The notes under the pieces were generated by a model. That model ran no database searches and had not been told where the DNA came from. It saw only the letters and a list, made by a program, of their open reading frames with translations. A DNA stretch of 64,000 nt from Podarcis bocagei (taxonomy: Eukaryota). The stretch is taken from NCBI GenBank assembly GCA_964188305.1, contig OZ076899.1; one strand, 5' to 3'. Numbering within the stretch: the first letter of the stretch is position 1; each line of letters starts with the position of its first letter. Below are positions 22,701-28,610 of this stretch, piece after piece. The position numbers and the translations under genes were made by a program.

Positions 22701-23968
22701 CAGAGCGCAAGGCATCACCCTGACCAATCCGAGCACCTTGTCCACACAGTTAGTAAATTAGCCTTTACTATCTAAAACTCATCCAACACAAAAGGACTAG
22801 ACAGTGCTCTGGACACCCCTTCCATCCTTTTATCTCCCCCCCCTCCTGCTTTTATCTTACAAACTGTAATTAGTGGCATTTAGTAAACATACAGATAATA
22901 ACTATCAATATTAATTTACCCCTCAAACTCTGCTGCCAGGATCTTTAACAAACCATTTAAAATTGTTTCCAGTAAAGGGGTTCGGTTGCACTTTTTAAAA
23001 TCATGATATTAAAAAAAATCTGTGCTTTATACCAGTCATGGTTCTGTACTCATTTTTAGTGAGTTACCATACAGAAATTCTAAATTACTGGGCTTCTCTC
23101 TCCCCCCCCCTTTTAAAATTGGAGTAGAATGATAACTCATTAAAATGGTGAGCTGGCATCTTCTATCACCCTTCATCTTGAAATCTTTCTTGATGGGGCA
23201 GAAAAGGATTTTACAAAGAGCATTCATTAATGCACAAGCCCATGAAGATTTTGACAATAAAAAAATGCAGAAGTAGAATCCTCTTAGTATCAGATGTCTT
23301 AGGTTAATCCATAAAGATGTTAACCCTTTGGAGTGACTTACAGAGGTGAAGCCTGTATTGGTCCAAGCACAATCATTTTGATTAATTTTATTTATCTATC
23401 CACTGTTTTCACAAATTCCAGTCTTTCTTTGGAAATTAACAACAACTTTAAAAAAATCAATTGGCTCTTTGCTATTTCATGTTAATCTTAATATGTTTAC
23501 AGTAGTTCTGTGTGATTTGTTGTTGAAAAATACAATATTTGTTACTAATTGTCACAATTTGCCCTGAAAGCCACTAGTGTGAAAAAGTAATACACCTTTG
23601 GGTGACAAGGATTATGGCTGCTATCCTAAACACTAAGGATAGGATATCCTAAATGCTAAGCAGCAAGCCACATTGATTAGACTGGGGCTTCTAGGCATAA
23701 GAATGCCCTGTAAATGTTTTTGCTACAAGTCATAGGCACTTTACTGGGATTTTCTGTTTAATGAAAGCAGGGAAAATTTCTCTCTCCATGTAAAACTAAA
23801 AGAATACCCTGGCATTCTGCCATTATTTGAGACTTAGTTTTACTGAATCCACATTTTATAGGTTGATAGAAAAGCTAGGGAAAATACATCTGGGTTGATG
23901 TCAGTGTGACAATATATTCTTGAACAGCTTCAACCTATTAAGTTTATTTCATTTCATTATACACCAGA

Positions 23969-24306
23969 TGTCGAGTTGCAGCTCGACATCCAGGGAAAAA
24001 TCAGTCTCACACCATGAGGGGTTCCGAAATATGGCTGCTCCTAGGGCTAATGCAGCACAGCTTTTATTGTGTGAAATAGAAAAGATACAAAAAATACAAG
24101 TCAAGCAATTTGTTCTAGCCAGCAGATAAAGACCTTGGTACTAGACCATGCGAGCAATCAGGCCATGCTACGTTAGCCAATCATATGGGACAGCACGAGC
24201 TGTTCACGCGCTATTCATGCTCCAAGGATGCTTCTAGCTATGAGATCACCCTGCAACAATAAGAACTTTGCTCATGCTCTCATGTACAAGCAATCATTTT
24301 CCCACA
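23969..24306 (-). repeat. ERV 3' LTR
   Basis: Preceded by the PPT; AATAAA poly(A) signal on the minus strand at 24063-24068. Confidence 0.96.
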
Positions 24307-24308
24307 TG

Positions 24309-24320
24309 TCCTCTTTTCTT
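24309..24320 (-). promoter_or_regulatory. Polypurine tract
   Basis: AAGAAAAGAGGA followed by CA, immediately upstream of the 3' LTR. Confidence 0.88.
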
Positions 24321-24351
24321 ATTATATTGTTAGAGGAAAAAGGAGGGACCA

Positions 24352-26118
24352 TTAGTACACTTCATTGCCTAAGCGTCTACACTGTGCAACATAAATTCCT
24401 CTTGTAACCCCTGTGGTGGGCCGTGGTCGGTACCACCATGCAGTGCATTGGGAAATCAAAGAGGGTATGCATTGAATGCAACAACACACCATAATGAAGC
24501 CAGCAATACATGCAATTACAATCAATAAAACTTTTCTTAACCATACTCCATTGGGTAACCAAGAAGACAACCACTCCCATGGATCAAAACCTTCAGGTGG
24601 ATTCAAAGGATTATGGGCTATCATTTGTTCCATATGATCAATAGTAGCAGAAATATTGGTTGATTGATCAGTTATATACATGCAGCAATGAGAATAAATT
24701 AAGGCACAAATTCCACCTTTAGAAGCAAGGATCACATCTAAAGCATAATGATGTTGAAGAACTACATTTCTTATTTCTGATATTTCTTTGTTAATCATTT
24801 TTAAAGCCAAAATGGTGGAATTGAACAAATTTTCTGTCCAGTTTGCCAATTTATGCAAATCACGGTAATTCATGGCTGCACCTAAAGAAGGCAGAAGAGA
24901 CCTAGAAATAGTTGTCCCTGTATATTGAGAAATAGGTGATTGTACTTCCCTTCTGTTGCGCAAACGGACCGCTGGGAGCTTATCTATTTTATACACCAAG
25001 GGTACTACTATTCCTAACGTGCAGGTACCAGAAAAGGCAGAGGGGAGTTCTTTGTAGGCCCTTGTGCCACATAATAACCATAAATCAGATTGAAGCAAAC
25101 ATGTAGTTCTGCTGCTCTTTCTCATCCAGTCGAACCAAACATAAAAATCTCTACACGCGGCTTGTTGTTCATAGGTCATGTAGGTCGTGACATTATTAAT
25201 TAAGACCTTTGGCCTACCACTCATGGTTGTAACATTAAGAAAACAAGAAGATCCATTAATGTACTCATATGTCCAATTACAATATGGATAGTGACCTAAA
25301 AATTTTTTGCTATTATGATTAAAATGAAAACAATACGGAGCTAATTCTACAAGCGATAGAGATACAGGAGGTAAACTTATGCGATTGTCTTTCATATTAT
25401 TGCTAATCTTATATGAAGCATTTATAGGAATACCATGTAATAAAATGCCAGATCTTTTTGATTGAGGAGGGATATGCATACACATCCAACAATCAGAAAG
25501 ATTAAGCATAGAAGCAAAATGATTAATGTCTCTAACGTAAGTATTGTTAGTCCAAATCTGATGATAAGGTTCAGGCCTCCTGGCCTTCTGCAAAAGAGCA
25601 GCACGACGAAAGCGGTGTTTTACAAAGTTCCCGGAGAGGCTCCACCCGTGTGAAGTGGAATTGTGGGGCCACTCAGGACGATGCCATATTGGTTGCTCGG
25701 GGGGGCAATAAGGGTGAGAATGGTGAATTATTCCAATAGCTGTTTCCGAGCAACCTGCGTGATATTTCGTGGCTCGATTATTGACATGTAAAAACCACAA
25801 TCCAGGAGAAGCCACACAGCCATTTCTGCAGATACAGGAGCCCATTTGCTGTAAATAGGCCTCATGTACTGCTCCGTGCACTGCTGAGCCAAGAATCCAA
25901 ACCCAACGAAACGTGGTGACACCGATGGGATGGTCGCTATTGGGGGGCAAAACCCAAGCGATGCCGGTCTGACGAGGGCATCCTTCAAAGCCAGGTTCAT
26001 TTCCCAAACAAGAGGCAGCAAAACTGTAATGATGTTTGGTGGTTGAAGTGGCTTCCCAGGGAAAAGGGGGGCCAATGCAGTAGGGATGAAGATGGCCTTT
26101 CAACGTGCCAGGAAACAC
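24352..26118 (-). CDS. env: ERV Env, gamma-type (SU CWMC, furin RNRR, ISD, CX6CC, TM anchor); start codon unresolved
   Basis: NLSDCWMC (25480-25491); RNRR (24949-24960); ISD-like LQHHYALDVILASKGGIC; CALIYSHCC; anchor VLLIVIACIAGFIMVCCCI. The track start is GTG, the frame is open from 26247 and the first ATG is at 25845. Confidence 0.9.
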   Translation of the reverse strand: MFPGTLKGHLHPYCIGPPFPWEATSTTKHHYSFAASCLGNEPGFEGCPRQTGIAWVLPPNSDHPIGVTTFRWVWILGSAVHGAVHEAYLQQMGSCICRNGCVASPGLWFLHVNNRATKYHAGCSETAIGIIHHSHPYCPPEQPIWHRPEWPHNSTSHGWSLSGNFVKHRFRRAALLQKARRPEPYHQIWTNNTYVRDINHFASMLNLSDCWMCMHIPPQSKRSGILLHGIPINASYKISNNMKDNRISLPPVSLSLVELAPYCFHFNHNSKKFLGHYPYCNWTYEYINGSSCFLNVTTMSGRPKVLINNVTTYMTYEQQAACRDFYVWFDWMRKSSRTTCLLQSDLWLLCGTRAYKELPSAFSGTCTLGIVVPLVYKIDKLPAVRLRNRREVQSPISQYTGTTISRSLLPSLGAAMNYRDLHKLANWTENLFNSTILALKMINKEISEIRNVVLQHHYALDVILASKGGICALIYSHCCMYITDQSTNISATIDHMEQMIAHNPLNPPEGFDPWEWLSSWLPNGVWLRKVLLIVIACIAGFIMVCCCIQCIPSLISQCTAWWYRPRPTTGVTRGIYVAQCRRLGNEVY

Positions 26119-26139
26119 TGGAACAGCTGTGGAAGGTGA

Positions 26140-26413
26140 CTTTATCCATTGCAGAGGTGACTGTGATCTTGTCTGCTGGATCCTTATGTCCTTTAAGGGC
26201 AGAAAATAGTGGAGACAAAGTGGAGGTGGGCAGGTCCAAATAACTCTTTATCCAATTCAGCTGTCCAAGGATTTGTTGTAAATCCACCAATCTAAGATAA
26301 CCAGGAAACTGTAGTTGAGGCGTAACTGGAATGGCTGCAGATGCTGTCAGCTTGTGTCCCAGGTACGTAATAGGTAAGGTCCGCTGGATTTTTTCTTTAG
26401 CCACTGTCAATCC
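26140..26413 (-). pseudogene. pol: ERV pol remnant (end of RT palm plus RT thumb)
   Basis: GLTVAKEKIQ...PITYLG...LVDLQQILGQLNWIKSYLDL...LSPLFSALKG fits a class II RT thumb. No protease, YxDD, RNase H or recognisable integrase. Lower boundary is approximate. Confidence 0.88.
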
Positions 26414-27824: not shown

Positions 27825-27850
27825 GATTGCAAGAGTTGCAAAAAAAGGCA

Positions 27851-28224
27851 GGGAGCACTTACCGAGGGATCCGTAGGAGGATGAGGAAGGCGCCTTTTTG
27901 CCCTGTCCGGGCGGAGATAAGTGCTGATAAGTCCGTAACGTAGTCCAGAATCACATTCACACGGGAGCTCTCACCAGGGATCCACTACGTGGATGAACGA
28001 CGCGTCTGCAGCCCTTGCGGGGCGAGGTGAGAGCTGAACGTTGTAAAACAGCATGAAATCCGAAAGAAATCACACGGGAGCACTCACCAGGGATCCACTA
28101 CGTGGATGAACGACGTGTTGGTGAGTGCTGAATAATGAAAAACAGGCAGTCACACGGGAGCACTCACCAGGGATCCACTACGTGGATGAACGACGTGTTG
28201 GTGAGTGCTGAATAATGAAAAACA
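27851..28224 (-). repeat. ERV leader repeat array (4 hairpin units, each with a splice-donor motif)
   Basis: Units at about 27851-27926, 27957-28038, 28070-28144 and 28150-28224; the last two are identical at 80-bp spacing. Confidence 0.85.
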
Positions 28225-28240
28225 ACGTGAAGTCCGAAGG

Positions 28241-28258
28241 CAGTCACACGGGGCACCA
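28241..28258 (-). promoter_or_regulatory. Primer binding site, tRNA-Met(elongator)-like
   Basis: TGGTGCCCCGTGTGACTG lies 2 nt after the 5' LTR. The first 15 nt complement the vertebrate elongator tRNA-Met 3' end (...TCACACGGGGCACCA), recalled from memory. Confidence 0.8.
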
Positions 28259-28260
28259 AA

Positions 28261-28598
28261 TGTCGAGTTGCAGCTCGACATCCAGGGAAAAATCAGTCTC
28301 ACACCATGAGGGGTTCCGAAATATGGCTGCTCCTAGGGCTAATGCAGCACAGCTTTTATTGTGTGAAATAGAAAAGATACAAAAAATACAAGTCAAGCAA
28401 TTTGTTCTAGCCAGCAGATAAAGACCTTGGTACTAGACCATGCGAGCAATCAGGCCATGCTACGTTAGCCAATCATATGGGACAGCACGAGCTGTTCACG
28501 CGCTATTCATGCTCCAAGGATGCTTCTAGCTATGAGATCACCCTGCAACAATAAGAACTTTGCTCATGCTCTCATGTACAAGCAATCATTTTCCCACA
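28261..28598 (-). repeat. ERV 5' LTR
   Basis: Minus strand TGTGGGAAAA...CTCGACA; matches 23969-24306 with no difference seen by eye; followed by TT and the PBS. Confidence 0.96.
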
Positions 28599-28610
28599 AC
28601 CAGAGTATCT

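Follow-up and report, generated by a model that had tools for sequence, protein, structure and literature searches.

A probably helper-mobilised lineage of deleted endogenous retroviruses in a Podarcis lizard keeps its truncated gag frame open

Helper-dependent endogenous retroviruses (ERVs) have been recognised in mouse, cattle and koala, and we found no description of one from a lizard in the literature within our reach. The accessible parts of two mouse reports describe the IAP 1-delta-1 subtype as a class II ERV that shares a gag-pol deletion, is non-autonomous and outnumbers its helpers in new insertions (PMC6466679, PMC7411935). For the ERVK[2-1-LTR] D-type of cattle, the available portions of a bovine study report about 85% defective copies trans-complemented by a few competent ones, with C/D recombination and divergence that accumulates beside the boundary; the same portions present ETn/MusD, recKoRV/KoRV-A and HERV-K type 1 as trans-complemented defective morphs of an ERV clade, and treat the reason why defective copies outcompete their helpers as an open question (PMC10924933). 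Among squamates, the excerpted account of PyERV from Python molurus gives a betaretrovirus-like gag-pol with a gamma-type env (PMC3758190). In these respects, and for PyERV in outline, an element that we analysed in a 64,000-nucleotide stretch of Podarcis bocagei DNA (assembly GCA_964188305.1, contig OZ076899.1; the whole stretch is referred to as the window) is alike. It is a minus-strand provirus of 4630 bp and belongs to a lineage of about 100 proviruses that share one inactivating deletion, D1, and that keep a truncated gag open up to a stop just past the deletion junction. This open frame is very probably the feature under selection throughout the D1 lineage, and one that an initial annotation of the window, made from its sequence alone, had overlooked.

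The ruler for the deletions was L009, a natural 7801-bp copy of the family. Relative to it, the window element lacks ruler positions 2057-3545 (D1, about 1.49 kb), which held the nucleocapsid (NC), the protease and the front of reverse transcriptase (RT), and positions 3811-5620 (D2, about 1.81 kb), which held the RT connection, RNase H, integrase and the start of env. The interior loss of NC, protease, most of RT, RNase H and integrase through two deletions, as the initial annotation had described it, is thus seen directly against L009, and both junctions are real, but their microhomology is not the GG proposed there: each has 4 nt, GGAT at 26410..26413 where gag meets RT (D1, the lineage-defining junction) and TGGA at 26145..26148 where the RT thumb meets env (D2). 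We verified D1 in 107/107 candidate loci, which were chosen from search hit lists. Other searches were consistent with a large family: a 471-bp query spanning both junctions had a full or near-full-length match in all 40 candidates scored of 147, the RT stub matched at 81% identity or more in 112 of 150 scored (a hand count), and the search with the long terminal repeat (LTR) returned 338 candidates, of which 40 were scored. D2 occurs in many versions, and copies with only D1 or only D2 both exist. When all 29 candidates for the segment deleted by D1 were scored, it proved to be kept in six copies at 95% identity or more and in two copies of a second strain at 83-84%; of the six, only L009 has all four frames uninterrupted, the other five being interrupted or deleted elsewhere.

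How did so many copies come to carry the same lesion? Of 65 D1 copies examined for their LTRs, 58 could be resolved; the two LTRs are identical in 41 of these, and 52 have an exact 6-bp target-site duplication (TSD) of their own. Over the 58 pairs there are 32 substitutions in 20,686 sites, corresponding to a mean insertion age of 0.15-0.8 My if rates of 1-5e-9 per site and year are assumed, while the 5' LTRs are all distinct (59/59) and a median of 5% apart. Since the copies diverge far more than their LTR pairs do, their divergence arose in replication cycles and not in the chromosome. That LTR identity is an assembly artefact, or that the copies are DNA duplications, is highly improbable: the evidence at the locus consists of contigs and not of raw long reads, which leaves some room for the idea, but 17/58 LTR pairs are not identical, each copy is distinct in LTR sequence and TSD, and 3 sites separate the LTR of the window element from its nearest foreign counterpart. 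Duplication with shared flanks is excluded by the TSDs. The same inactivating deletion in many independent insertions, together with related complete copies, characterises a trans-complemented morph, and there is good support for mobilisation in trans by an endogenous helper. The proposals that the damage predates integration, and that a search for the junctions would reveal siblings and a full-length helper, were therefore borne out, and no exogenous virus is needed as helper, because undeleted copies are present in the same genome. Recombination has been pervasive, as the fraction of site pairs showing all four gametes rises from 17% under 50 nt to 41-43% beyond 200 nt. APOBEC-type hypermutation was considered and rejected, there being 230 C>T against 160 G>A changes and no strand-specific excess of G>A.

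Beyond this assembly, the Podarcis muralis protein P0008 ends in the D1 junction peptide, a 321-nt gag skip found among the D1 copies is seen again in a sequencing run from organism B, and organisms A, B and C show the gap pattern of one D2 variant. We found no prior description of this ERV family in the literature, with subscription journals, supplements, Dfam and Repbase, which may hold an unnamed ERVK consensus, outside our reach. The copies L004, L042 and L050 have an extra primer-binding site (PBS) plus a piece of U5 at the end of both LTRs (in L050 the TSD follows the extension), and L085 and L086 have internal inversions in the stub or gag.

The truncated gag of the window element (26397..27824) runs for 475 codons, as the initial annotation had it, from an ATG at 27824 to a TAA at 26397, and encodes matrix (MA), a proline-rich linker, capsid (CA) and a spacer before stopping five codons past the last gag residue; Pfam recognised Gag_p10, Gag_p24 and Gag_p24_C in it and found no zinc knuckle. 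Across the lineage 95 of the 104 copies with a mapped start (three more copies have no start) have a gag that reads uninterrupted from ATG to junction stop, and in all 95 the stop lies five codons past D1, although the proteins so encoded range from 316 to 478 aa. The same genomes provide a control in env, whose start is retained in only 2/107 D1 copies and which is open end to end in 2/57 headless copies (five of the failures break at the anchor, upstream of which the frame was unscored). Indels shared by at least two copies are in frame in 27 of 31 cases in gag and in 13 of 60 in env and the stub (Fisher p 1.6e-9), these events being defined by alignment and not fully independent. Of the four out-of-frame indels in gag, three form part of changes that compensate one another; the fourth, found in three copies, is a true +4 frameshift.

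That selection acts in cis on the gag frame is, in our judgement, very probable. The contrary explanation, that repeats slip by threes and recombination with helpers repairs gag, has some points in its favour, in that the proline-rich linker holds many of the gag indels, recombination is frequent and the N-terminal domain of CA (CA-NTD) in about half of the copies is 0.4-4% from undeleted copies. It is nevertheless improbable, because the C-terminal domain of CA (CA-CTD) plus spacer is 14-20% from undeleted copies and so was not recently repaired, yet has in-frame indels only; because env recombines too but is broken in 55/57; and because slips of 1-2 nt, frequent in env and the stub, are nearly absent from gag. 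We found no earlier account of selection acting at the population level on a truncated gag frame, much of the literature being out of our reach.

The encoded residues are not conserved, those of the capsid drifting freely. Omega, computed from variants confined to the D1 copies (61 of these compared with 19 other copies), was 0.49 for MA (p 0.03, uncorrected), 0.89 for the linker, 1.09 for CA-NTD, 1.86 for CA-CTD plus spacer (p 0.054), 1.25 for the stub and 0.97 for env; unfiltered values were lower in every region, consistent with variation derived from helpers. A CA-NTD segment of 107 codons (321 nt, in frame) is absent from 32/59 siblings, although it is present in the window copy (26895..27217). 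Within CA-CTD and spacer every indel is in frame though residues there drift, and reaching the stop therefore matters more than MA alone. The major homology region was called altered by the initial annotation, and so it is, reading IRQDPAKPY against VRQGPTEPY in undeleted family copies, with the exception of its final Y in place of F, which is native to the family.

Could it be the host that keeps the frame, the truncated Gag serving as a dominant-negative restriction factor? Interference with assembly is established for other ERV Gag proteins, and a Gag without NC and with an altered capsid could disturb assembly. Such a role is very unlikely here, given that the frame is kept as the lineage replicates, through about 100 insertions that are recent and dispersed, and not at one fixed orthologous locus, that less than 1 My of host selection per copy could not yield the pattern, and that capsid residues are not conserved.

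A protein role for the element itself deserves more weight, though we hold it to be possible rather than probable. A nascent, myristoylated chain containing MA might act in cis, as in IAP 1-delta-1, by taking the RNA that encodes it to the membrane, the place of helper Gag assembly; decay of the capsid would be tolerated or even favoured for preventing Gag without NC from poisoning the particles. The weak purifying selection on MA would agree with this, as would the start MG(K/Q/T)SLS in all 102 translated starts, the omega of CA-CTD and the stepwise changes of the major homology region; the copy L023 has an in-frame gag-RT fusion resembling 1-delta-1, and the cis effect of IAP is stated in the parts available of two reports (PMC6466679, PMC7411935). 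On the other hand, a need for MA alone leaves in-frame indels 300 codons downstream unexplained, MA can be renewed through recombination with helpers, three copies have an in-frame deletion of part of MA, and the truncated protein has no NC for RNA binding. L023 is also of interest structurally, since its gag-RT/RNase H fusion of 586 codons is the closest match to IAP 1-delta-1 that we encountered.

Our inclination, on balance, is towards a different explanation, namely that these helper-mobilised proviruses keep gag open so that ribosomes reach the junction stop and the RNA thereby escapes nonsense-mediated decay; whether the selected thing is termination beside the RT stub and its CU-rich tract, and not the protein, we put at an even chance. 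The LTR-driven RNA would be translated to the junction stop and then survive, to be packaged by helper Gag through its intact leader and copied and integrated by helper Pol. Co-packaging with helper RNA is almost certain, and the intact env of the helper and the MGxxxS start suggest reinfection, as is argued for cattle in the portions available of that study (PMC10924933). A frameshift would, by analogy with Rous sarcoma virus (RSV), stop translation far from the stub and expose a 3' untranslated region (UTR) of 2 kb to decay. According to the accessible parts of the RSV reports, its stability element (RSE), with PTBP1, is a precedent for protection next to a stop, and the likeness extends to a long 3' UTR after the gag stop, destabilisation of the RNA by upstream stops and CU-rich sequence near the stop (PMC2925335, PMC4764554).

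In the window the stub is a piece of RT palm and thumb (26145..26413; RVT_thumb by Pfam) that does not continue the gag frame and is now 3' untranslated. It contains, 163 nt 3' of the gag stop, a CU-rich tract (26196..26233) that is a candidate cis element and that, in pyrimidine content, shares first place among the 40-mers of pol with one other. Of the D1 copies, 105/107 retain the tract in sense, across many D2 breakpoints. Changes shared by the lineage number 2 in 243 nt in the stub against 37 in 327 nt just upstream of D1; likewise the stub is only 1-5% from undeleted copies while, across the junction, the end of gag has diverged as described. Synonymous conservation of the stub between helper strains is a weak signal, its windows being the lowest in pol (4/31 and 4/30) but near several others. 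As a splice acceptor the tract is disfavoured, because a second deleted lineage, B, drops the AG after it.

Lineage B (L088-L093) has its own junction and an open gag in 5/6 copies. Its stop lies 14 nt before the CU-rich tract (L088-L090, L092 and L093), and its RT island ends exactly where the tract ends, so that in D1 and lineage B alike the stop is followed within about 200 nt by CU-rich sequence, which is an RSE-like trait. The chance that an independent island would overlap the stub is roughly one in ten, and the convergence is suggestive only. A bolder version of the RNA-stability explanation, in which independent deletions have repeatedly parked the gag stop by a cryptic CU-rich RT tract that shields the RNA, while selection strips Gag of its assembly function and so spares the helper, we offer tentatively and rather doubt. 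Lineage B copies (L088-L093 and L099) otherwise have a near-whole Gag with NC, small RT islands and a 3' piece of integrase, and their five resolved LTR pairs show 0 substitutions.

Several observations weigh against RNA stability as the selected property. No folding signal was detected in the stub RNA (z -0.73) and no Rfam match to it; variation in the tract is C/T-only in 13/13 cases, no different from 24/28 in the rest of the stub (p 0.29). The +4 frameshift is common to three copies with different D2 ends (L085, L122 and L123), and the open frame is therefore favoured and not required. Copies without gag (L006 and L102) or without the stub (L096, L097 and L010) have also integrated. A third lineage, C, is without the CU-rich tract; there the open gag of L097 ends at its own junction, with an ending that eight P. 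muralis proteins share. The helper has the tract far from the gag stop, which leaves the native role of the tract unexplained. The constraint on MA and its invariant start favour a role for the protein, the low divergence of the stub may stem from a later origin of the junction, and most copies were found with stub or MA queries, which favours copies that hold these segments. A deficit of stop codons, tried as a further test, was not discriminating, since env has one as well (3 against 10.6 expected; gag 0 against 7.1). The RNA-stability part is, finally, an argument by analogy and from sequence. Lineage C itself (L097 and P. muralis P0001, P0004-P0007 and P0009-P0011) has a Gag cut in the second knuckle, and L097 is older, with 7 LTR substitutions.

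The gamma-type env remnant of the window element (24352..26148), in which Pfam found TLV_coat and which retains CX6CC, is open for 631 codons from stop to stop, 598 from junction D2 or 497 from the first ATG, so the 588 codons previously given were not reproduced. This long frame is headless because D2 removed the start codon and signal peptide (in L009, whose Env has 657 aa, the first 56 residues), and for the same reason a functional env in this copy is rejected; with so few headless siblings open throughout, the proposal that env stayed open in any meaningful sense is not supported. Nearest siblings switch along the copy, and its CA-NTD, which is close to undeleted copies, and most of its env were, judging by segment-wise nearest neighbours, acquired from less deleted genomes, the middle of env being nearly identical to that of the env-bearing copy L025. 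Recombination of this kind accounts for the open env frame. In many D1 copies a middle part of the env surface subunit (SU; ruler 5824/6059-6334) is replaced by sequence that cannot be aligned with L009, suggesting a second SU variant.

At its ends the element has the marks of an LTR retroelement. The two 338-bp LTRs, with TG...CA termini, lie at 28261..28598 (5') and 23969..24306 (3', with AATAAA at 24063-24068); they align with 0 differences and are flanked by ACCAGA on both sides (23963..23968 and 28599..28604), in agreement with the initial annotation. A polypurine tract (24310..24320) forms a purine run before the 3' LTR, and the leader holds three repeats of 75-80 nt (27957..28224). The age of the copy, as calculated from this single identical pair at assumed rates, is bounded only to below 0.9-4.4 My. 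Continued spread of the lineage, as the initial annotation had it, is no more than plausible. Contigs of four sequencing runs over 22600-27900 leave the left flank uncovered in three and reveal no join across an empty site, and a gap there is uninformative.

What kind of virus gave rise to the family? The frames of L009 are gag (521 aa, two knuckles), pro (with the protease), pol (RT, RNase H and integrase) and env (with CX6CC), and its gag, pro and pol lie in separate overlapping frames, a class II trait, as are the 6-bp TSDs and the domains Gag_p10, Gag_p24, CCHC knuckles, RVT_thumb, Integrase_Zn and IN_DBD_C. Its best PDB matches are 7sr6 (E 3.5e-129) and 7usf/3jca, which we take to be HERV-K RT and MMTV integrase, respectively. 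A dUTPase at the start of pro is matched weakly by PF00692 (E 0.021, below the cut-off). The PBS of the window element (28241..28258) has a 15-nt match to host tRNA-Met(CAU), and not to tRNA-Lys, the primer typical of Betaretrovirus. PBS variants in the family match two host tRNA-Met isodecoders, that of the second occurring in two copies, as expected if the PBS is recopied from the primer. The Env is gamma-type and not beta-type, although type D betaretroviruses have gamma-type Env as well. The virus is thus a class II, betaretrovirus-like ERV that combines a gamma-type env with priming by tRNA-Met, a placement based on best-match searches, and it is not filed in the genus Betaretrovirus. One 96.5-Mb contig of the assembly (C19 of G000), possibly a W chromosome, has most of the matches to class II families that are more distant (50-70% identity, with long pol frames).

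The host is a lizard, as had been supposed: an exon of MRTFB at 55726-56760 has 98% identity to that of Podarcis lilfordi and 88% to that of the next lizard, and all 12 Gag homologues (12/12) are from Podarcis, which points to a Podarcis-like lacertid. MRTFB coding exons occupy 38650-63776 on the plus strand, and residues 1-51 are encoded by an exon some 4.2 kb to the left of the window (L105 5673-5825), the next exon being that at 38650. With MRTFB exons on both sides, the element is therefore antisense in an MRTFB intron. The same intron contains, at 4117-7329 on the minus strand, an apparently intact 1070-codon open reading frame (ORF) resembling LINE ORF2 (endonuclease and reverse transcriptase), and at 60868-61981 there is a GC-rich stretch whose duplicated unit yields repeated peptides in several frames.

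We conclude that a betaretrovirus-like virus, recently amplified and combining a gamma-type env with a Met primer, is documented in Podarcis, where it is a likely source of insertion polymorphism, and that its D1 lineage provides a clean internal control, with gag kept in frame in the very genomes in which env and RT decay. Natural variants make the choice between RNA stability and a protein acting in cis testable, and if the gag stop is indeed kept beside the tract in order to shield the RNA, the lineage would be a natural, still-replicating record, a hundred copies strong, of selection on translation without protein function. For PyERV we know of no defective swarm and no Met primer. In the portions available of the cattle study, ETn/MusD, recKoRV/KoRV-A and HERV-K type 1 are not said to have a conserved truncated gag frame, and the bovine D-type elements are without an intact ORF and have a centre that cannot be aligned, whereas the lizard deletion is clean and its gag frame conserved; de novo activity is proven for ERVK[2-1-LTR], while the lizard family is known from genome sequence (PMC10924933). 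The RSE, in the accessible parts of the RSV reports, is native, 155-400 nt long, rich in CU clusters and tested, in contrast to a single candidate tract of 38 nt moved near the stop by deletion (PMC2925335, PMC4764554). IAP 1-delta-1, also among the closest counterparts to D1, makes, as the available parts of the mouse reports describe it, an in-frame Gag-Pol fusion where the lizard gag stops five codons past its junction, while D1 is without NC, has a drifting capsid and has helpers that keep env; in the mouse, translation of the deleted ORF matters in cis, and in the lizard there is the evolutionary signature of it (PMC6466679, PMC7411935).

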